From: Candidatus Hadarchaeota archaeon
Lineage (GTDB): Archaea; CAYQAE01; CAYVLA01
Direction: 5' to 3'
NCBI GenBank assembly: GCA_964621445.1
Contig: CAZUNO010000042.1
Location: 1-16,534 of the forward strand
DNA length: 16,534 nt
Both the position numbers and the translations under genes were made by a program. Under the pieces are notes generated by a model. That model did not search any database, was not told the DNA's origin, and saw only the letters and a list, made by a program, of their open reading frames with translations. Below, one piece after another: positions 4,558 through 16,449 of the stretch; positions within the stretch are counted from its first letter, which is position 1; each line of letters opens with the position of its first letter.

Positions 4558-4929
4558 CACAGGGGTTAGCTTGGTATCCACAGCTACACTGGAAAAACAC
4601 ACCTCCAGTGGTATGTCTTCAGAGAGTAAATAGAGTGTCTAACTTCCTCCATGGAAATGAAAGTGCTTTCTGCCCCTTTAGGGTTGGTAACACTCATTTT
4701 CAGGACCGTGATAACCTTCACCACTAAAGGTAGGTTATGTGATAGCTGTGGTGACTATTTTCATCTCCTGTTCTACCAAGATTTGTGGCAAAATATGCTA
4801 TAAGGTTTTCTCTCTTTAGCCGTTAGGGTGATCATGTCGTTTTTCTGATGATTGCTTTGTTATTGATTTGGTCTATTTATTGCCTTCATTGGTTGAGGTT
4901 GGGCGTATTTTTGGCGGTTGGTTTGGATT

Positions 4930-5405
4930 CTGGGTTTGTCGTAGGAGGGGTTTTGGTATTGTTGGTTGGTGATGTTTTTTAGCGCTGTTTCAGCTTCTCT
5001 TTTTTTCTCTTCTCTGTCTCGTGGTGGTGGGTGCCTGTCTACGAATTGGACCAGCTCTCTGTACATGTTGTGTAGGACTTGTGCTAGGGGTGCTCCTTCT
5101 TCTGTGTCGGCAAGCTCATCTACCTCTCTTAGCAGGTGGCTCCGGCATCTTTGGAGGTCGGAGCCAGGGGGGTCATGGCGGTGTAGGCGGGGGTGCGATC
5201 TCCACCCGTCGCTGACGATGACTCCGTTGAACTTTTTGCCCAGCACTGTGGCGGGGACTTTCTTCCCGCGGGTGTGGCGGACTGTGTATAGCACGGCGTT
5301 ACGGGTTTCGAAGGTCCACACCTAGCCCTGCTCGGTTAAGGCTGACCCCTGTCTCGTCAGCGTACACCACGTCGGTTTCCCTTACCTGGCGATGGATATC
5401 CTTTG
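4930..5405 (-). pseudogene. IS66-family transposase internal fragment (frameshift plus nonsense codon)
   Basis: IHRQVRETDVVYADETG in one frame, then WTFETRNAVLYTVRHTRGKKVP..LGKKFNGVIVSDGW..LQRCRSHLLRE in another. The frameshift and an in-frame TAG lie near 5322-5335. Both termini are missing and boundaries are approximate. Confidence 0.88.
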
Positions 5406-5500
5406 ATATGATGTGCTTCACCATCTTTAACCTAACCAGGGCCCTGGCTTTTTTTGTAGCAGTCTTTGGGCCGGTTGTAATAATTCCAAATTTTAGGGTT

Positions 5501-5589
5501 AAAAGCCGCAAGTATTTTTAAGTAAAGCTGTAAATTCTTTGGGTAACGAACAAAGAGTTCGTTATTTGTATACAATGTTTAGGAGGTGA
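5501..5589 (+). promoter_or_regulatory. gvpA promoter region with TATA-like box, inverted repeats and RBS
   Basis: TTTTTAAG at 5515-5522; TAACGAAC-N5-GTTCGTTA at 5544-5564; palindrome TTGTATACAA at 5566-5575; RBS GGAGGTGA at 5582-5589. Confidence 0.55.
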
Positions 5590-5597
5590 AAAGACGC

Positions 5598-5816
5598 ATG
5601 GTAAGTCAGCAACCGGATGTTTCTAGTTTGGCGGAAGTCCTGGACAGGGTTCTGGACAAGGGCGTTGTTATCGATGCTTGGGTCAGGGTCAACCTGGTGG
5701 GCATTGAGATCCTGAGTGTGGAAGCCAGAGTGGTGGTAGCTTCAGTCGATACCTATCTCCACTACGCGGAAGAAATGGCTAAGATAGAACAGGCAACCAT
5801 AAGTGCCCCCGCATAG
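5598..5816 (+). CDS. gvpA: Major gas vesicle shell protein GvpA
   Basis: [59 protein letters not shown] is canonical archaeal-type GvpA. ATG 5598 is correctly spaced from the RBS; the track's GTG 5586 lies inside the RBS. Confidence 0.98.
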
Positions 5817-5837: not shown

Positions 5838-5867
5838 GAGGAACTGTATGATGGTTCCTCTTTTTTT
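5838..5867 (+). terminator. Hairpin plus T7 tract downstream of gvpA
   Basis: GAGGAAC(tgt atg atg)GTTCCTC immediately followed by TTTTTTT. Confidence 0.75.
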
Positions 5868-6038
5868 GTGAAATTGATTCTGGTTGAGGCCATTGCGTCT
5901 TTGAGAGGAGGTTGTCTATGCATATATCGAAATTCGTTACGTACGGCGTATCCGGGTTCGAATTACACGCAACTAAAGGTCAGGTAATGTTGGGGAGAAC
6001 GAAAATGCAGGAATTTCGTAAGAAGGAGATGAATTGAT

Positions 6039-6995
6039 TTGGCAAGCAGTCAAACAAAACAGCCCGTACAGAGAGTTGTCGAGGAAGAAGACCATAAACC
6101 TGAAGATATGGATAATGTCCAACCCAAACATCTTATCCCTAGACGCCCACTGTTCGTGGAGACGGATGAAGTAAAGAATCTGAAGGATAGGGCCATACAC
6201 TGGATCTCGGTTGGCAGTCCAATACATATCATCGGGCCCACCGGATGCGGCAAGACCACGATGGCCATGGAAATCGCATACGAACTGGAGGCGCCGGTAA
6301 CTTGGATAAACGGCGATGACCAGATAACCACCGAGGACCTGGTCGGCGGGTATAAGGAGTTCGAACAACAGACCTACAGAGATAGATTTGTGCATAATGT
6401 TTTTCGTGGAAAGGACAAACTTCAGGCAACCTGGGTCGATAATCCGCTAACCATAGCATGCAAAAACGGCTACACCTTCGTATACAATGAGTTTTCACGT
6501 ACAAAGCCGGAGGCCAACAATGTCCTCCTTTCCGTCTTGGAGGAAGGAATTCTGGAACTTCCGAACATGTCTGGGAATGAGAGGTACATCGAGGTCCACC
6601 CTGAATTCAATGCAATCCTCACCAGCAACTCAGTTGAGTATGCGGGGATTCATCGGGCGCAAGACGCCCTTCTAGATCGCATTGTCGGGTTGTATATGGA
6701 TTATTATGGGCCTGAAACGGAGCTGAAGATAGTCACAGCACACACGGATCTGCCTATGGAGAATGTAAAGGAATTGGTGAGGATTATCAGGGGCTTGAGA
6801 AGCCAGCTTGATCCAGCCGAAAGACCTGGCACCAGGGCCTGTGTTATGGTAGCAAAATCCGTTGAGGAATTCGAAGAGGTAGATGACCAGCTTCTGAAGC
6901 AACTCATACTTGACGTGCTGACCTCAAAGACAAAGGGTATAGAAGATATGAGGAAGAAGGAGAAGATTCTCTCCAATCTTGTCAATAAAGACTAA
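6039..6995 (+). CDS. gvpN: Gas vesicle AAA+ ATPase GvpN
   Basis: Walker A GPTGCGKT, DLVGGY, WVDNPLTIAC, YNEFSRTKPEANNVLLSVLEEG and TSNSVEYAGIHRAQDALLDR motifs. TTG start; ATG 6108 is an alternative. Confidence 0.96.
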   Translation: MASSQTKQPVQRVVEEEDHKPEDMDNVQPKHLIPRRPLFVETDEVKNLKDRAIHWISVGSPIHIIGPTGCGKTTMAMEIAYELEAPVTWINGDDQITTEDLVGGYKEFEQQTYRDRFVHNVFRGKDKLQATWVDNPLTIACKNGYTFVYNEFSRTKPEANNVLLSVLEEGILELPNMSGNERYIEVHPEFNAILTSNSVEYAGIHRAQDALLDRIVGLYMDYYGPETELKIVTAHTDLPMENVKELVRIIRGLRSQLDPAERPGTRACVMVAKSVEEFEEVDDQLLKQLILDVLTSKTKGIEDMRKKEKILSNLVNKD

Positions 6996-7013: not shown

Positions 7014-7370
7014 ATGGCAGGAAACGACAATGTTGTGGAAAGGAAGTATGGATCCTCTGGGGTGGATACGCACCTGGCTGATGAAGATACCGCAGCCCTC
7101 CCCCTGGAAGAGATCGGAGCGAAGGCATTAGCCATATTGGATAGCCTCCTCGGCGGTAAGAAAGAGGCAGACGATGTCATCGCTGTGCGAAGGGAAGATG
7201 ATGAATGGGTGGCCACCGTGGAGAGCATAGAGAGGAGAGCGGTTCCCGATACCCAGGACATCATGGGTGAATACGAGGTCCGGATGGATTTGCAAGGACA
7301 ACTTCTGGACTACAAGCGGATTGGTCTTCGTAGAAGGTGTGAGCTGCAATACCAAGGGGATTTTGAATAA
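7014..7370 (+). CDS. gvpO: Gas vesicle protein GvpO
   Basis: WVATVESIERRAVPDTQDIMGEYEVRMDLQGQLLDYKR GvpO signature; follows gvpN. Confidence 0.92.
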   Translation: MAGNDNVVERKYGSSGVDTHLADEDTAALPLEEIGAKALAILDSLLGGKKEADDVIAVRREDDEWVATVESIERRAVPDTQDIMGEYEVRMDLQGQLLDYKRIGLRRRCELQYQGDFE

Positions 7371-7381
7371 ATAACTAGCAG

Positions 7382-7909
7382 GTGACCAAGGAGAAGGTCG
7401 TTGAATTGAATAGCTATAGCAACTGCCAGCAGGAAGAAGGTAAGGCCATGCAGGCCAGGGCAAAGGCGCGCCAAAGAGAAGTTAGGAAAAGGCACCAACA
7501 AAAGGCGAAAACCATAAACCGGAGATTGAGGAATACCAACCGTAAGCTTACCCATAATAAAGAATTCCATGAGAATGTTCGGGCAGCAAGAAAAAAACAG
7601 AGAGAAGCAAGAGAAAGGCATCTGATGAAAACGAGGGCCATAAAGCAGAAACTGGACGTTATACACCGGCGACAAAAGCTTCGGAAGCTTGGACAGATTA
7701 CCAATAAATCCAAAAGCAGTAATTCTACCGAGCAAAACTTTCCTGAGGAGAGAGTTAAGCGGAGAACCTTTGCAGGGTTCAGGAATAGGGATCTATCCTG
7801 GCTTAGCTTGCGTGGGAAAGGTCGGAAGGCACATCCTATATCGCATAGAAGGTCACAGTCTGTTGTGAACAAGACGAAAAATACCGGAGGAAAATCAGAT
7901 GACGAATAA
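7382..7909 (+). CDS. Highly basic R/K/Q-rich helical protein, possibly GvpI-like
   Basis: Fills the operon gap; KAMQARAKARQREVRKRHQQKAK recalls the basic N-terminus of haloarchaeal GvpI. Low complexity makes homology uncertain, and the start is uncertain (7382, 7406 or 7448). Confidence 0.65.
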   Translation: MTKEKVVELNSYSNCQQEEGKAMQARAKARQREVRKRHQQKAKTINRRLRNTNRKLTHNKEFHENVRAARKKQREARERHLMKTRAIKQKLDVIHRRQKLRKLGQITNKSKSSNSTEQNFPEERVKRRTFAGFRNRDLSWLSLRGKGRKAHPISHRRSQSVVNKTKNTGGKSDDE

Positions 7910-8015
7910 TATGAAGCTGAAAATACTTAGTGCCAAATGGTGGCTCCCAGCTTCAATAGGATTCAGGAGTCCATCTATACGGCGGGAAAACCCTGGAGGT
8001 TCTGGGGATGACTGA
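7899..8015 (+). CDS. Small 38-aa ORF bridging the basic protein gene and cdc48
   Basis: RBS GGAGGA at 7886-7891, ATG 7899, [38 protein letters not shown], overlapping both neighbours. Confidence 0.4.
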   Translation: MTNNMKLKILSAKWWLPASIGFRSPSIRRENPGGSGDD

Positions 8016-10257
8016 GGAGGGGGACGTCGAGCTACGGGTCGCTGAGGCGAGGCATAGAGATGTGGGTAGGGGAATAGCCCGTATAGAGACCGGTGTCATG
8101 TCGCGGCTGGGGGTGGTGAGCGGAGATGTCATTGAGCTTCAGGGGAAGAGAACCGTTCCCGCACTTGTTTGGCCTGGCTATCCAGATGATACGGGAAGTG
8201 AAATAGTCAGAGTGGATGGCAATATCAGGGGTAATCTGAAAGTAGCTCTCGATGACAGGATAAAGATCAGGAAGGCCAAGGTGAGCGAGGCCAAAGAGAT
8301 CACCGTTATTTCTAGCCAACGAGTTAGAATTGCTGGCGGTCCAGCGCATGTACGAAGGGTGTTACAGGGAAGACCAGTGGTCAAAGGACAAAACGTTAGA
8401 ATCCAAGTGTTGGGCAGCCCACGTACCTTTACCATTCAGGATACCAATCCGGAAGATGTAGTCCTAATGCGGCCCGATACGAGGGTCAATATTAAGACCG
8501 CAGAAACCGGCAAACCTCCTGAAACAAAGGGCACCCGAGTGACCTACGAGGACATTGGAGGCCTGAGGAGAGAAATTGAGCTTGTCCGTGAAATGGTTGA
8601 ACTCCCTCTCCGCCACCCGGAGCTATTCCAGCGCATGGGGATAGAACCGCCCAAAGGGATCCTTCTTTACGGGCCTCCAGGAACTGGGAAGACACTGATA
8701 GCCAAGGCTGTGGCGAATGAGACATTCGCCAACTTCCTATTCATCAGCGGGCCCGAGGTCATGGCTCGTTATTATGGTGAGAGCGAGCAGAGAATCCGAG
8801 AAATCTTTCAAAAGGCGGAATCCAACTCTCCGGCCATCATTTTTATTGACGAGTTTGACTCCATCGCCCCTAAGAGAGAAGAGGTTGGAGGCGAGAAACA
8901 AGTTGAAAAGAGGGTGGTGGCCCAGCTACTCTCTCTCATGGACGGTCTAGAGACTCGTGGAGAGGTGGTTGTAATAGCCGCCACTAACAGGCCTGGGTTG
9001 ATAGATGAAGCTTTACGTCGAGGCGGCCGGTTTGACCGAGAGATAGAGATAGGTGTACCTGATAGAAATGGTAGAAAGGAAATACTTCAGGTTCATACCC
9101 GGGGAATGCCGCTTGCGGATGATGTGAACCTCAAAAATCTGGCGGATTTAACTCATGGATTTGTTGGCGCTGACCTCTCTTCGCTGTGTAAGGAGGCAGC
9201 TATGCATGCGCTGCGAGAGGTAGCCCGGAAGATAGAGTTTGAAAAGGAAATACCGCCCGAAGTTTTGAAGGAACTTCAGGTGACAAATCAGGACTTCAAC
9301 CAGGCACTAAGAAATGTGGAACCCAGCGCAATGCGCGAGGTATTCGTTGAGGTTCCCCAAGTGAACTGGGATGATGTTGGCGGGCTTGAGGAATCGAAGA
9401 GACATCTCATTGAGGCCGTTGAGTGGCCTCTGAGATTTCCGGAGGCGTTTGAAACACTAGGGACGGCACCGGCAAAAGGGGTTCTCCTCTTTGGTCCTCC
9501 TGGCACCGGCAAGACCATGCTGGCAAAGGCAGTGGCCACCGAGAGCAACGCCAACTTCATAGCCATAAAGGGTCCGGAGATCTTCAATAAATTCGTGGGA
9601 GAGTCAGAGAGGGCTGTCCGAGAGATATTCCGCAAGGCAAGACAGGTCGCCCCGGCAGTGATATTTTTCGACGAGATCGAGTCCATCGCGTCAGACCGGG
9701 GCTTTGCTACCGACTCTCAGGTAGGAGAACGAGTAGTGAGCCAGCTCCTAACTGAGCTGGACGGAATAGAGGATACCAAGCAGGTCGTAGTCTTGGCGGC
9801 CACCAACCGGCCGGACCTTGTTGACTCTGCACTCCTTCGTCCAGGTCGCCTAGAACGCCTGATATATGTGTGTCCACCCAACCAAAAAGAAAGAGAGGAA
9901 ATTTTCAACATACATCTTTCCGGTCTTTCCCTGGATCCAAGTGTAGATGTTGAGGAGCTTTCCAGAATGACGGAGAGCTACGTTGGCGCCGACATCGAAT
10001 CCCTTTGCCGACAGGCGGCAGTCCTGGCAATGAGGAATTTCATCAAGCCCAGTATGGATCGAGACTCGGTGGTGAAGGGTATCAAGAATGTACAGATAGG
10101 AAAAAACGATCTTCATCATGCCGTCGCCTCTCTGAAGCCGGTAGCATTGCATGAAAAGCTTACGGAATATGTGGAAATAGCGGAGGGCTTCGCCAGACCC
10201 ATGGAAGCTGAGATATCTCAGATGCCGAAGGGAGGGACCAGTGACGATGAGGGATGA
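8008..10257 (+). CDS. cdc48: CDC48/VCP/VAT family double-ring AAA+ ATPase
   Basis: N domain ([18 protein letters not shown]), VTYEDIGGL, two GPPGTGKT Walker A motifs, Walker B IFIDE and IFFDE, SRH motifs [11 protein letters not shown] and [19 protein letters not shown] linker. Confidence 0.97.
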
Positions 10258-11140
10258 AAATTGGTTTTCCTCTTCCCTTGGCCAGGACAAGATTGACCTG
10301 GATCAGCTCTTAACCAGCATCCATCAGCCGGGTCATGCTCTCCACTTGTATGGACCTTCAGCCGACAGGTATGCCATCCATGAGGCCTTTCTAAACTCGG
10401 CTCACGGAGAATCTGATGCTCTCTATATCGCAGATATAGGTTCAAACACGGCTAGTGCACTTCAAAAGACGCATCCGGAATTGGAGATCGTGCCCGCCAA
10501 AGAAGTTAAAGCCTGCTTGACACGATCAATCAACGGGCTTTCAATCCTTATGGACGGGTCATCAATGTTATCAGCTAACGCAGAGCTCTTCGACCAAGGT
10601 GAGGGCGATATGCCCTTTATCGAGGGTAGACTCGAAAAGCTTAGTAGGACTAACCGTATCCTGTGTACATATGATGTGACCAGTACACCCTCTGATCTAC
10701 TTAAGCAGGTAGTGGAATGCCACGACAAGCTGATTCTTACCAATGAAGATGTCACCATGCTTTCATCGCCTGCGTTATCCGACCTTCAAGCCGCCGACGA
10801 TGGTATCTTGGAGAGGTTTGTCAAGAACTACCTCGACATGTTAGTGTTGACATTGGTGATGAAGAAACCCATGTGCGGGACTGAAATAATGAAAACAATT
10901 CACAGAAATTTCAATGTGCTGGTGAGTCCAGGCACAATCTACCCCCTACTTCACCAGTTGGAGGATGAAGGTCTACTGAGATGTGAATACGGAATGAAGA
11001 AAAAGGTGTACCGACACGTCTCGTCGCGACGGGACCAAATTCTGGATATGATTTCTGACCATCTTCAAATAAACTCAGTGCTGGGGACAATGCTGTCCCA
11101 AACAAAGGAACGGACCGCGGAGCAGGAGGTGTATGATTGA
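10241..11140 (+). CDS. Transcriptional regulator: N-terminal MEDS-like domain fused to a PadR-family (GvpE-like) winged HTH
   Basis: N-terminal GHALHLY...ALYI...ILMDG...E..L......ILCTYD...VVECHDKLI is a MEDS/DcmR pattern. C-terminal VKNYLDMLVL..PMCGTEIM..FNVLVSPGTIYPLLHQLEDEGLL..KKVY is PadR-like. Start is GTG 10241 or ATG 10247. Confidence 0.85.
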   Translation: MTMRDENWFSSSLGQDKIDLDQLLTSIHQPGHALHLYGPSADRYAIHEAFLNSAHGESDALYIADIGSNTASALQKTHPELEIVPAKEVKACLTRSINGLSILMDGSSMLSANAELFDQGEGDMPFIEGRLEKLSRTNRILCTYDVTSTPSDLLKQVVECHDKLILTNEDVTMLSSPALSDLQAADDGILERFVKNYLDMLVLTLVMKKPMCGTEIMKTIHRNFNVLVSPGTIYPLLHQLEDEGLLRCEYGMKKKVYRHVSSRRDQILDMISDHLQINSVLGTMLSQTKERTAEQEVYD

Positions 11141-11796
11141 GAAAGGCGAAAAGAGGAAAATACGTTTATTGTGTAGCCCCATCAAATGGTGAAAAAAGGA
11201 GTTACGGTAATCTGGGCATGGATGGTGAGGAAGTTTATACCATCAGCTATAAGCAGGTGGCAGCGGTAGTCAGCGATGCCAAGGTGAAGGAATACGAACC
11301 GAACCCGGAAAACGCAAGGAAACATGACCAAGTGATAAGGAAGGTGATGGAGGATTGCACTGTGTTACCCATGGCCTTGGGGATGGTGTTCAAAGATAAG
11401 AGGACGATGCTATTAGTGATCAGGGCCTCATACCGGGCGATTAAGAAAAGCCTAGATGCTTTTCAAAATAAGGTGGAGCTAGGGGTTAAGATCATTGTTC
11501 CTCAAGACCAGACTGACCATGCCGATGACCATTCATTTCAGAAAGCCAAGTCTGACATTCTTAGTTCCCTTTCCGAATTGGCCTGCAAAACTAAGGAAGG
11601 CAGGCTTTTCAGTGATAGATTGTTGCTAAATGCTTCTTTCCTAGTACAAAGAGATGAAACTGAGGCTTTCTCGAAGACGCTTGGTGATCTGGATGATAAA
11701 TATCGATCTCTAGAAGCCAAGTACAGCGGCCCATGGGCTCCCTATAACTTCGTTAATATAAAGATAGCTGGCCAGGGCCCAGGAGGAAGGCACTGA
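11137..11796 (+). CDS. gvpF: Gas vesicle protein GvpF (GvpL/F family)
   Basis: YVYCV, VAAVVSD, HDQVI, TVLPMALG, KVELGVK, LLNASFLV and YSGPWAPYNFV motifs; precedes gvpG. Confidence 0.92.
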   Translation: MRKAKRGKYVYCVAPSNGEKRSYGNLGMDGEEVYTISYKQVAAVVSDAKVKEYEPNPENARKHDQVIRKVMEDCTVLPMALGMVFKDKRTMLLVIRASYRAIKKSLDAFQNKVELGVKIIVPQDQTDHADDHSFQKAKSDILSSLSELACKTKEGRLFSDRLLLNASFLVQRDETEAFSKTLGDLDDKYRSLEAKYSGPWAPYNFVNIKIAGQGPGGRH

Positions 11797-11807
11797 GGAG
11801 GAGAAGC

Positions 11808-12143
11808 ATGGCACTCATAATTGATGACTTGGCCGACCTCAGCGGGTTCTTTTTAGTCGGCATGCCGTGGTCAATGTTCCTATCTCGGCTGCAAGATATA
11901 GCGTACTCGCAGATGTATGATGCACAGGCTCTAAAGGATAAGATCAGGGAGAATCAGATGCTATACGAACTCGGAGAGATCTCAGAGGGCGAATATGAGG
12001 AGAACAACGAGGAGTTACTGCGAAAATTGGAGCTGGCCGAGCGTTACAGCCAATTCGATCTTGAAACCAGAGCTGACAGGCTCAGCGATAAGACGCAGGA
12101 TGACCAGGAAGATGAAAAGCTTATTCTAGGAGGAGGAAACTAG
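11808..12143 (+). CDS. gvpG: Gas vesicle protein GvpG
   Basis: IIDDL...MYDAQALKDKIRENQMLYELGEISEGEYEE..EELL; RBS GAGGAGG. Confidence 0.92.
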   Translation: MALIIDDLADLSGFFLVGMPWSMFLSRLQDIAYSQMYDAQALKDKIRENQMLYELGEISEGEYEENNEELLRKLELAERYSQFDLETRADRLSDKTQDDQEDEKLILGGGN

Positions 12144-12500
12144 ATGTCAGGACTAAGTCCCAGCCGAGAAGGTGGACAAGGTTTAGCTGATGCCATAGAC
12201 AAGATACTGGACAAGGGACTGGTGATAAACGCCGATATCACCGTCTCACTGGCTGGAGTGGAACTACTCGGCATAAAGATAAGGGCCGCGGTAGCCTCGC
12301 TAGAAACCGCTGCCAAGTATGGACTTGAATTTCCTTCCGGCACCAATCTAAATACACCGGGATGGAAGAATGCGGGTATTGGCATCATGACCTGCCCTGC
12401 CTGCGGAAATGAAACCGGGAGGAGCACCTTCCTTGAAAAAGGGTGCCCGATATGTGGATGGAATGGGTCTCCCCCATCCAGAGAGGTTGCTACGACATGA
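12144..12500 (+). CDS. gvpJ: Gas vesicle protein GvpJ with C-terminal CxxC..CxxC zinc ribbon
   Basis: GvpA-like core LADAIDKILDKGLVINADITVSLAGVELLGIKIRAAVASLETAAKYGLEFPSGT; tail CPACG-x11-CPICGW. Confidence 0.92.
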   Translation: MSGLSPSREGGQGLADAIDKILDKGLVINADITVSLAGVELLGIKIRAAVASLETAAKYGLEFPSGTNLNTPGWKNAGIGIMTCPACGNETGRSTFLEKGCPICGWNGSPPSREVATT

Positions 12501-12817
12501 CCGTGGAAATAGACGAAGACAACCTCAGCAAGGGGCTACTTGGGTTGGTTATGGCACTAGTTGAGATCATAAGAGACGTGCTCGAGGAACAAGCCCTGAG
12601 AAGAATGGAGGGAGAAGAACTAACCGATGATGAGGTGGAGAGGCTAGGTACATCCCTCATGGAGCTGGACAAGGCAATCCAATCGATCAAGGACCAGCAC
12701 GAACTGGAGGACACCGTTGACCAGGTTAAGAGTAGCCTAGATGATGTGGCTGACGAGGCACTGCGCACGCTTATTGACCCTGAAAAATGGAGGGAACAAC
12801 AGATTGCCAGCCATTAG
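12497..12817 (+). CDS. gvpK: Gas vesicle protein GvpK
   Basis: GLLGLVMALVEIIRDVLEEQALRRMEGEELTDDEVERLG signature; ATGA overlap with the gvpJ stop gives start 12497. Confidence 0.94.
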   Translation: MTVEIDEDNLSKGLLGLVMALVEIIRDVLEEQALRRMEGEELTDDEVERLGTSLMELDKAIQSIKDQHELEDTVDQVKSSLDDVADEALRTLIDPEKWREQQIASH

Positions 12818-12857
12818 AACAAGAGCAGGGCACGGGGAAATAGAGGACACAGAGACC

Positions 12858-13634
12858 ATGGAATGCGAGGGCAGATATATCTACTGCATGTGTAAGGCCG
12901 AAGAACCGGTAACCCTGGGCAAAATCGGAATCGGGAACAGTGAGGTTTACTCCATTTGCCATCAGGGCGTCGCAGCCATGGTCCATATCTGTAAAGCAAA
13001 GCCCTACGAATCATCCGATGAGGAGAGAGTCAAGGAATGGGTCCTGTCTCATCAATACACGATAGACAAGGCGACGGAAAAATTTGGAACGGTAATCCCT
13101 TTCACCTTTGACACCATATTCAAGGGCGGCGATGAGAAAGTCAAGGAATGGATTGGCCAGCACCTATATAGGCTGAGGCAAAAGCTTGATTCCCTTCAAA
13201 ACCTGGACGAATACGGGGTTCAGATTTACTGGGATGCTAGAGCCTCCAAGCATGGGATGGGGACCAATGGTGAACAGGAAGGCCAACAAGAAAAATCTAG
13301 AAAGAAGGGAGGTATGGGCATGGCCTACCTGATGAAGCGAAAGGCAGAAAAGGAAGCCGAAAGATCTAGCCAGGAGAAAGCGGATGAGTTGCGCAATGAC
13401 CTGTTTACACGCATCAAGGCCTATACACAAGAAGCCAAAACTTCCAAGTCCACCCCCAAGTTCGCTAATAGAGAGAGAACTGATAAGAAGCTCTTAGTGG
13501 ATCTTTCCTGTCTGGTTTCCAGGGATTCACTGTCTGGTCTGAGTAAGGAGCTGGAGGAAATAGACGGCCGGAGCGACTTTGAAGTCCGGTTTACAGGGCC
13601 TTGGCCACCGTACTCCTTCGTGCAAGGTTTCTAG
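12858..13634 (+). CDS. gvpL: Gas vesicle protein GvpL (GvpL/F family)
   Basis: EGRYIYC, PYESSDEERVKEWVLSHQ, FGTVIPFTFDTIF, GMAYLMK and RFTGPWPPYSF motifs; lies between gvpK and gvpM. Alternative TTG start at 12804. Confidence 0.92.
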   Translation: MECEGRYIYCMCKAEEPVTLGKIGIGNSEVYSICHQGVAAMVHICKAKPYESSDEERVKEWVLSHQYTIDKATEKFGTVIPFTFDTIFKGGDEKVKEWIGQHLYRLRQKLDSLQNLDEYGVQIYWDARASKHGMGTNGEQEGQQEKSRKKGGMGMAYLMKRKAEKEAERSSQEKADELRNDLFTRIKAYTQEAKTSKSTPKFANRERTDKKLLVDLSCLVSRDSLSGLSKELEEIDGRSDFEVRFTGPWPPYSFVQGF

Positions 13635-13657
13635 TGCAAAATAGGGAGCTTTTTAAC

Positions 13658-14248
13658 ATGCAACCCACGAGAGACCGCGAATGCACCATCACCGACCTAC
13701 TGAACAGGGTCCTTGACAAGGGGGCCATTATCATTGCAGATGTTGTGATAACTCTGGGTGGGGTGCCCCTAATAGGTGTGAATTTGAAGGCGGTAATAGC
13801 GGGAATGCAAACCATGCTTGACCAGGGTCTAATGGAGGAATGGGACAAGGAGATCCGATCCAATCATGGGGAAGAGGCATTGGAAGGTGAAAGTGAGGAG
13901 AAAGTTATGGCAGGCTTCGTTGGCTCCTACTGTAAGAAGAGAGGGCCAATTAGGGCCTGGAAGTCCGGAAGGATATGCGTGACTGACAAGAACCTTGCTT
14001 TGTTGCAGATCGGGGAAAAGCAGCCTGATGTAATAATTGCCCTCTCTGAGATTCGACAGGTTTCTCTGGTCAATATCTCATCGTTCATCGGGGTCCCACT
14101 TCAGGGTCTAGTGGTTTCAACTAATTCAGCTGGGTCCTGGTTAATGAAAACGGCAGATGTCTCTGCACTGGGGCGGCTTATCAACCGGGAAGCGCAACTG
14201 CCCGGTGATTTTTCTAACCAACAAGGTGGATTAATTGCAAATGCTTGA
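13658..14248 (+). CDS. gvpM: Gas vesicle protein GvpM with C-terminal PH/GRAM-like extension
   Basis: MQPTRD..ITDLLNRVLDKGAIIIADVVITLGGVPLIGVNLKAVIAGMQTMLDQGLMEEWD is GvpM-type, followed by about 120 extra residues. RBS GGGAG precedes ATG 13658. Confidence 0.88.
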   Translation: MQPTRDRECTITDLLNRVLDKGAIIIADVVITLGGVPLIGVNLKAVIAGMQTMLDQGLMEEWDKEIRSNHGEEALEGESEEKVMAGFVGSYCKKRGPIRAWKSGRICVTDKNLALLQIGEKQPDVIIALSEIRQVSLVNISSFIGVPLQGLVVSTNSAGSWLMKTADVSALGRLINREAQLPGDFSNQQGGLIANA

Positions 14249-14278: not shown

Positions 14279-14863
14279 CTAGCGTATATTCTTTATCCTG
14301 ATGTCATTTTGAAGATTCATCTTCAATCGATGTTTGGCTCCCAGGAACAGTAGCCCCGTCTCTCCTTCCTTCAATGTTGAATTGATTCTTTTTGCAATGT
14401 ATTTGTCCCTTTTTCGCAACAAATCATGTTTTCGCGATGCATATTGGCGTTTTGCTTGGTTTGCTGGTGGGGTGGGTTCCATAGATGATTTGATACCATC
14501 ATATTCGATCTTCAACAAATCCGGGTCCTCAGTTCCCTCCACGGTTGCCCCCATTTCCATCAGCTTTTTCAGAAGCTTGAAGTTTCTACTACCGCGTTCT
14601 GCAGCCTCACGTACGATTCTGGCCTCCTCACCGCACTGAGGAAGGCCGTCTTGGTAGATTCTCACATTCACCCAGTCGACATCTAGTTTGGTTATTTTTC
14701 TTTCCAGATTATCCCAGAACGCCTTAATTTTTCTGGACTTCCTTCGCCACCCACCTGGACCAAATTTGGAGAGTGTTTTCTTCCTGATTCCGTCTCTTAG
14801 GCTTCCCATGTCGGAAGGGGCGTGAATTATGCGTGCTATGAATAGGTTTCTCACGGAAACCAC
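14279..14863 (-). CDS. Uncharacterised protein with TraB/PrgY/GumN (TIKI)-like motifs
   Basis: RIIH, IYQDGLP, EGTED and C-terminal RDKYIAKRI..L...GLLFLGAKH, resembling the R[ND]xxMA...GAxH ending of TraB/TIKI-type proteins. Start may be GTG 14854. Confidence 0.7.
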   Translation of the reverse strand: MVSVRNLFIARIIHAPSDMGSLRDGIRKKTLSKFGPGGWRRKSRKIKAFWDNLERKITKLDVDWVNVRIYQDGLPQCGEEARIVREAAERGSRNFKLLKKLMEMGATVEGTEDPDLLKIEYDGIKSSMEPTPPANQAKRQYASRKHDLLRKRDKYIAKRINSTLKEGETGLLFLGAKHRLKMNLQNDIRIKNIR

Positions 14864-16193: not shown

Positions 16194-16449
16194 GTTTCGA
16201 TCCTTCGTTGATTTTTTCTCAGAACCCTGTCAGTTAGCAAACGGAGATGATATGCGTCAATTTTAAATTGCAATAGTTGATGATGTAATTGAGCGATAGT
16301 CGTACCAGTTTTCCATGAACGGTTACCCACCAGCACACCATGCATTCATCCCTCCGGGTGAATGACACATGGAAGGGCGGACTCCATATTTTATGGCTAA
16401 GCCCAGTTTCCTTGATTTTATATTTTATACATTATTAATTAAGGAGTTG

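Follow-up and report, generated by a model that had tools for sequence, protein, structure and literature searches.

The window analysed here comprises positions 1 to 16,534 of contig CAZUNO010000042.1 of a Candidatus Hadarchaeota archaeon (assembly GCA_964621445.1). Pfam and NCBIfam matches of its proteins identify these 16.5 kb as an archaeal gas-vesicle (gvp) cluster. Directly in front of gvpF lies a gene whose product carries an N-terminal MEDS domain and a C-terminal PadR-type winged helix. This gene is probably the dedicated transcription regulator of the cluster, belonging to a PadR subfamily that includes haloarchaeal GvpE. The evidence comes from its domain composition and fold, its homology to GvpE, a strict gvp context among its full-length relatives, and the enrichment and placement of a palindromic motif in related loci. 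The gene and its parts are as follows.

10247..11140, plus strand: MEDS-PadR regulator gene, 297 amino acids (aa) from ATG 10247; alternative start GTG 10241 (299-aa reading).
10292..10768, plus strand: N-terminal MEDS domain of alpha/beta RecA/KaiC-like fold without Walker A motif, about residues 16–174.
10844..11011, plus strand: PadR winged helix-turn-helix, residues 200–255 of the 297-aa form, with the motifs PMCGTEI and SPGTIYPLLHQLE.
11021..11134, plus strand: long C-terminal helix, residues 259–296, from the secondary structure of the model.

The open reading frame (ORF) predicted at 10241..11140 on the plus strand is real, and 150 homologues at E ≤ 1e-3 (mostly 260–300 aa, best E 5e-67) argue against chance. 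ATG 10247 is the likelier start, with GGAGGG 10 nt before it, and the 297-aa product was recovered in the homologue search as P0002. The genes of the window follow the order gvpA / gvpN-O-orf-CDC48-regulator-gvpF-G-J-K-L-M. The start of the regulator overlaps the stop of CDC48 (10255–10257) and its stop overlaps the TTG start of gvpF (TTGA, 11137–11140); it is therefore embedded and translationally coupled in a gvpN-to-gvpM operon. This position directly before gvpFG matches, as originally pointed out, that of gvpDE in haloarchaea, where pNRC100 has the order gvpD-gvpE-gvpF-gvpG.

The winged helix-turn-helix foreseen in the C-terminal half was confirmed by Pfam PadR (PF03551), which matches residues 202–257 of the 299-aa reading with an E of 9.9e-9 and 35.5 bits (cutoff 27), and VSPGTIYPLLHQLEDEG is present in the translated regulator. 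The same family was matched by 79/79 aligned homologues. In an AlphaFold2 model of the whole protein, having a predicted local distance difference test score (pLDDT) of 81.5, the C-terminal half resembles the PadR structures 5h20, 1xma, and 4esf with TMt values of 0.70–0.80 (Foldseek against the PDB). The C-terminal helix of other PadR proteins serves dimerisation, and by analogy residues 259–296 may form a dimerisation helix here as well. A complex prediction with two full-length copies scored 0.01 against a mark of 0.42, which is evidence neither way on dimerisation.

Profile comparison shows the C-terminal half to be homologous to haloarchaeal GvpE. The haloarchaeal comparison set comprised the gvp regions of pNRC100, a Haloplanus plasmid, and pHBOR01. 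The earlier statement that the activator GvpE has a PadR-like C-terminal region held for the PadR domain, as two GvpE proteins match Pfam PadR above the cutoff with 30 and 34 bits. Furthermore, hhalign aligned family columns 179–269 with GvpE 78–171 at a probability of 97.5% (E 6e-12); the N-terminus of GvpE (1–77) found no match in the family. A hidden Markov model of the family C-domain gave GvpE 54–55 bits, compared with 28–45 bits for the loci outside gvp clusters and Hadarchaeum that were retrieved with the recognition-helix peptide, except for the haloarchaeal L053 (58.5). A Cys-Gly signature is common to MEDS-PadR and GvpE, the Cys of PMCGTEI (C210 of the window protein) being found in 46/46 MEDS-PadR, 3/3 GvpE, 0/30 other PadR, and 6/25 small gvp-adjacent PadR sequences. 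A quick tree was computed with IQ-TREE from 105 columns and 92 of the 114 rows, after the MEDS-PadR rows had been thinned by half; in it, GvpE and the haloarchaeal L053 protein (166 aa) grouped within the clade that contains MEDS-PadR. The PadR domain of the window protein was also searched exhaustively against 1.84 billion representatives; this yielded 979 matches at E ≤ 0.001, and 53 of the best 150 have a family-type MEDS N-domain.

The genomic context of the full-length relatives is strictly gvp-linked. Scanning genome contigs gave 80 loci, with the recognition-helix peptide PGT[IV]YPLL[HQ] fetching the PadR-only ones, and context was read by tblastn with the window proteins. All 43 full-length relatives lie in gvp clusters. 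The gvpF start follows the regulator within 1500 nt in 42 of them, the exception being L035, whose sequence ends before it, and gvpO lies upstream in 36/43. By record title, the hosts include Methanoperedens, Bathyarchaeia, Hadarchaeota, Thermoplasmatales, Methanocellales, Methanosarcina sp. UBA7, Aenigmatarchaeota, Micrarchaeota, and others. The gvp-linked full-length relatives come from seven or more archaeal lineages and keep one fixed position. Two of the 36 partial matches are also in gvp clusters (L044, and L041, which is cut by the contig end); the remaining 34 are PadR-only without gvp genes, L075 of the range L046–L080 being excluded from this count as it gave no PadR match in that tblastn. 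The relatives are annotated only as 'PadR family transcriptional regulator', which would suit a general-purpose PadR regulator of stress or detoxification standing beside gvp genes by chance. However, this reading is already contradicted by the context counts, namely the 43/43 occurrence in gvp clusters of at least seven lineages at one position and the 34 PadR-only loci that the same motif fetched without gvp genes, and it is considered highly improbable.

The DNA-binding module is found with other partners as well. One Methanoperedens metagenome-assembled genome has a natural 135-aa PadR-only protein without MEDS in the slot between gvpO and gvpF (L044:4689–5096). Proteins of 321–333 aa from the same PadR clade have a weak MEDS in Hadarchaeum and L021, and in L009 the clade is joined to a receiver (REC) domain. 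Thus, the DNA-binding module is combined with different input modules. The REC-PadR gene stands at the edge of a gvp cluster (L009:567–1334). Small PadR-only genes of about 100–146 aa, 25 in all, likewise edge related gvp clusters (L005–L043, e.g., L038:17883–18254 and L006:3811–4218); none was found in the window.

A candidate operator accompanies these clusters. Inspection of the region upstream of gvpA led to a 15-bp palindrome, TATCGA-N3-TCG(A/T)TA, and the evidence for it is comparative, across loci. The sites concerned are listed below.

5925..5939, no strand assigned: candidate operator TATCGAAATTCGTTA, between the terminator-like hairpin of gvpA and gvpN.
5544..5564, no strand assigned: perfect 8+8 palindrome TAACGAAC-N5-GTTCGTTA, 34 nt 5' of the gvpA ATG; expected number 0.03.
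L052, L056, L057, L061, L062, L064, L069, L076, and L080: non-gvp loci with the palindrome upstream of a PadR-only gene.

At one mismatch or fewer, the palindrome was counted 53 times across the loci and the window, 1.2 Mb in total. In the 46 gvp loci, which span 646,631 nt, there are 35 sites where 1.3 would be expected, the maximum in 30 Markov-1 simulations being 4. It was present in 31/46 gvp loci, and in 29/32 of those that include a gvpA or gvpN 5' region. In 17 loci, the window included, it lies 5' of gvpN; in 9 Bathyarchaeia loci it lies about 100 nt 5' of gvpA and 22 nt before a TGAATATTNCTTAAATA element; and in three loci (L002, L003, and L011) it precedes the regulator's own gene, with CGAAA and a TATA-like box coming after it. 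CGAAA usually follows the palindrome in gvp loci, and in 12 loci a TATA-like box comes just after the site. Moreover, the palindrome stands 14–36 nt 5' of PadR-only genes in 9/35 non-gvp loci of Thermococcus and related archaea. Because the Thermococcus-type PadR-only proteins share PGT[IV]YPLL[HQ], the palindrome can be tied to the recognition helix.

The original prediction had proposed 5450–5597 as a binding region. This region holds the palindrome 5544–5564, whereas the best-supported candidate operator is elsewhere, at 5925–5939. The palindrome 5544–5564 has the TTCGTTA half-site of the candidate operator with an N9 hexamer spacing, and from its sequence it could be either a second operator or a hairpin in the 5' untranslated region. 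Folded as RNA, the leader of gvpA forms a hairpin that is not distinctive (z-score -1.1). Hairpin-like palindromes at about -42 were also seen in Methanoperedens gvpA leaders, where the arms differ between loci and stay complementary. No second canonical operator was found in the window at two mismatches or fewer. Statistics do not support a degenerate site, TTTCGA-N4-TCGTTG, at 16195–16211. It is located between divergent genes, 5' of the Hsp20 genes and small ORFs on the minus strand, with an AT-rich, TATA-like stretch some 20 nt away.

Several findings weigh against the proposed role. Taken by itself, the window shows no enrichment of the motif: its one site gives 2 strand-hits, where 1.57 would be expected at two mismatches or fewer. 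The position of the motif varies among loci, and no clear TATA box follows the palindrome in the window. In Methanoperedens-type loci the palindrome ends about 6 nt before the Shine-Dalgarno sequence of gvpN, which is a repressor-like placement. The 25 small PadR-only genes near related gvp clusters could instead encode the proteins that actually bind the motif. As regards ancestry, the clade joining GvpE to MEDS-PadR has a value of 85 in the Shimodaira-Hasegawa-like approximate likelihood ratio test (SH-aLRT), is not starred, and contains GvpE as a flagged long branch. Additionally, no GvpE orthologue was among the best 150 of the 979 matches to the window PadR domain, so many PadR proteins are closer than GvpE to the window protein; the best identity of GvpE to any of those 150 was 43% over 69 residues. 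Finally, Pfam MEDS (PF14417) matches the window protein alone only at residues 139–161, with an E of 0.0056 and 17 bits against a cutoff of 29.8.

The MEDS assignment is carried by the family. A weak NCBIfam RsbA match of the window protein points the same way as MEDS. MEDS was matched at E ≤ 1e-3 by 61/79 aligned homologues, and isolated N-domains cut from the window and the genome loci matched it at E ≤ 10 in 37/37 cases (best 1.3e-9). Walker A ([AG]x4GK[ST]) was absent from all 44 locus-derived and all 79 database family members. The MEDS-like N-terminus without Walker A proposed at the outset is thus upheld. An AlphaFold2 model of the N-domain alone (pLDDT 84.1, predicted template modelling score 0.81) was compared with the PDB by Foldseek, and the matches were Elp4, CobU, FlaH (a KaiC-like archaellum protein), Rho, F1 subunits, type III secretion system ATPases, KaiC-C1, and RAD51/RadA-type proteins, with a probability of 1.0, E values of 4e-6 to 1e-4, and TMq values of 0.5–0.64 among the top ones. 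The model therefore indicates a RecA/KaiC-like fold, in agreement with the fold that had been expected. Compared with PDB sequences, the N-domain profile gave chance-level matches only (E 0.24 and 0.5). Family alignments revealed the conserved N-domain residues H30, Y35, Y60, T62, D103, S106, C140, Y142, D143, and H159, which the model places at or just after strand ends. Going by the fold class, this would be where RecA-like proteins hold the nucleotide. The N-domain is a divergent MEDS subfamily without a nucleotide site. The view of MEDS as an inactivated KaiC, cited in the original prediction, agrees with the entry 'MEDS (iKaiC)' given with reference to Makarova et al. 2017 in Galperin et al. 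2018 (PMC5847659).

A different function for MEDS was also considered. RecA-like folds usually oligomerise through the face carrying their conserved residues. The domain could be a protein-docking module and not a ligand sensor, linking the regulator to an ATPase (such as the CDC48 unfoldase or a KaiC/GvpD-like protein) that governs how stable the regulator is, in the way GvpD acts on GvpE. In the window, CDC48 is translationally coupled to the regulator, in L001 it lies directly upstream, and CDC48 homologues occur in 24/45 related gvp loci. GvpD causes the breakdown of GvpE, according to the 2022 review by Pfeifer (PMC9501494). On the other hand, CDC48 may instead serve gas-vesicle assembly, and in most loci it stands on the other strand at the edge of the cluster; this docking function is deemed unlikely. 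A CDC48 ATPase inside the gvp operon may have a role in either assembly or regulator turnover.

The original prediction regarded the fusion as a possible single-chain counterpart of the GvpD/GvpE pair. In its evolutionary form, this idea makes MEDS a degenerate descendant (or an ancestor) of the KaiC-like ATPase domain of GvpD, fused to or split from GvpE, and the fusion would unite antagonist and activator in one polypeptide. GvpD proved to be the P-loop/KaiC-like protein that had been described: Pfam finds GvpD_P-loop, KaiC (E 9e-15), and bR2 in it, with Walker A intact. MEDS and the GvpD domain alike fall into the RecA/KaiC-like fold class, the term 'inactivated KaiC' is used for MEDS in Galperin et al. 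2018 (PMC5847659), and the order gvpD-gvpE-gvpF parallels MEDS-PadR-gvpF. A short hhalign alignment, itself weak, superposes beta1 and the next loop of the family on beta1 and Walker A of GvpD in register. Against this, hhalign comparisons were not significant, with a probability of 0.2% for the family profile versus a single GvpD and 3% (E 0.015) for the N-domain profile versus a profile of 120 GvpD N-domains. Pfam GvpD_P-loop was matched by 0/37 N-domains and KaiC weakly by 2/37, as opposed to 37/37 for MEDS, and no window protein matches the GvpD family in Pfam. The C-terminal bR2 domain of GvpD has no counterpart in MEDS-PadR, just as residues 1–77 of GvpE have none. A MEDS-PadR paralogue of 321 aa lies outside gvp clusters in Hadarchaeum, and in the same PadR clade the DNA-binding domain is joined to REC in L009 and stands alone in L044, which points to input domains being shuffled as modules. 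The link to GvpE and the place of gvpE therefore stand, whereas the proposed link to GvpD failed beyond the level of the fold superfamily, and 'single-chain GvpD/GvpE' is a superfamily-level analogy and not shown descent. Common descent of MEDS and the GvpD ATPase domain is judged quite unlikely. As a separate observation, 456-aa GvpD_P-loop plus KaiC proteins about 30% identical to GvpD (P0190–P0241) occur in Methanothrix and Syntrophoarchaeum, and therefore such proteins are not confined to haloarchaea.

For a dedicated gvp regulator, the following mechanism can be outlined. The C-terminal winged helix, with the recognition helix SPGTIYPLLHQLE and probably as a dimer, would bind TATCGA-N3-TCG(A/T)TA. 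That the protein dimerises and binds the motif, whether it activates or represses, and what kind of signal it receives are inferences from sequence, model, and analogy. The target in the window would be 5925–5939, 5' of the gvpN-...-regulator-gvpF-M operon, and the related palindrome 5544–5564 5' of gvpA may be bound too. Regulation would be autoregulatory, because the regulator gene sits inside the operon that it would control. Activation is favoured over repression because of the analogy with GvpE and the site just 5' of the TATA-like box in the 12 loci mentioned. MEDS would act as the input module, having lost its P-loop and kept conserved polar residues at the expected position of the nucleotide crevice; through it, a ligand or a partner protein may set how actively the PadR half binds DNA or how stable this half is. 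A broader proposal sees MEDS-PadR as a widespread, possibly ancestral one-component gas-vesicle switch, in which the MEDS pocket reads a metabolic or redox signal (invariant C140, C210, H30, and H159) and drives a TATCGA-N3-TCGWTA regulon; haloarchaeal GvpD/GvpE would then be a derived two-protein version, with an active KaiC-like ATPase replacing the inactivated one. This proposal is speculative and, on present evidence, unlikely to hold.

The surrounding genes of the window are listed here.

5598..5816, plus strand: gvpA (Pfam).
5838..5868, plus strand: terminator-like hairpin and T-run, 3' of gvpA.
6039..6995, plus strand: gvpN (Pfam).
7014..7370, plus strand: gvpO (Pfam).
7382..7909: orphan ORF of 175 aa between gvpO and CDC48.
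8008..10257, plus strand: CDC48-type double AAA+ ATPase gene, directly 5' of the regulator gene and translationally coupled to it.
11137..14248, plus strand: gvpF (11137–11796), gvpG, gvpJ, gvpK, gvpL, and gvpM-like (Pfam, NCBIfam).
14279..14863, minus strand: conserved ORF of 194 aa with a weak TraB/PrgY/GumN match.

The orphan ORF 7382–7909 has no family in Pfam or NCBIfam, no tblastn match in related loci, and nothing usable from the ESM Atlas. The minus-strand ORF 14279–14863 shows 44–46% identity to genes next to CDC48 in Methanoperedens-type gvp loci with visible alignments, and the CDC48 homologues of related loci usually stand beside its homologue; it is an unnamed gvp-associated gene. 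The opposite strand of the window also carries an Hsp20/GvpH-like gene and two small ORFs. An IS66 transposase fragment (4860–5321) lies just 5' of the gvpA promoter region. The GvpN proteins of relatives (L004–L044) have an N-terminal extension that contains the conserved motif THPRKVRG and begins right after the palindrome; the GvpN of the window is without this extension and starts at TTG 6039, about 100 nt further downstream.

Compared with known systems, the window protein resembles GvpE in its PadR-type winged helix, its LSPGT(I/V)YP recognition helix, and its Cys-Gly signature, as well as in being encoded directly 5' of gvpF as a cluster-specific regulator. GvpE differs in its length of about 191 aa, in its unrelated N-terminus of about 77 residues and lack of MEDS, in working with a separate GvpD, in its recognition helix (YPHLNDL versus YPLLHQL in the window protein), and in its absence from the best 150 of the 979 representatives noted above. 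The PadR family (PF03551; 5h20, 1xma, and 4esf) shares the winged-helix fold and sequence motifs, and also the palindrome just 5' of the own regulator gene, seen here in the Thermococcus relatives; classical members have about 100–180 aa and no N-terminal sensor domain. The MEDS proteins (PF14417), such as DcmR, RsbA-type anti-sigma factors, and archaeal histidine kinases, are likewise P-loop-less and KaiC-like, whereas the N-domain of the window protein is divergent, falls below the Pfam cutoff alone, and has a PadR DNA-binding domain as output. GvpD belongs to the same fold superfamily and stands at the corresponding place ahead of the PadR module, but retains Walker A and bR2 and has no significant sequence or profile similarity. 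The upstream activating sequence of GvpE is described as adjacent to the transcription factor B recognition element and TATA box in the 2022 review (PMC9501494), similar to the candidate operator near TATA-like boxes in 12 loci.

The same review states that gvpDE is lacking in methanogen gvp clusters, that GvpD and GvpE are haloarchaea-specific, and that the cluster of M. barkeri is gvpAAA-NOFG-JHKLM (PMC9501494), and titles cited within PMC9501494 and PMC2872624 describe GvpE as basic leucine zipper-like. Literature searches of partial coverage, with subscription papers outside it, returned no description of a MEDS-PadR gvp regulator, of PadR or MEDS linked to gas vesicles, or of GvpE as a PadR protein. 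The new element here is thus a GvpE/PadR-type regulator with a MEDS input domain in the gvp clusters of many archaea that are not salt-loving and had been assumed to have no regulator of this kind. Under this reading, GvpE would be re-classed as a PadR-type protein. A conserved GvpE-related regulator with its sensor and candidate operator would give a first handle on buoyancy control in methanogens, Methanoperedens, and Bathyarchaeia, and would also provide engineered gas-vesicle reporters with a compact pair of sensor and operator.

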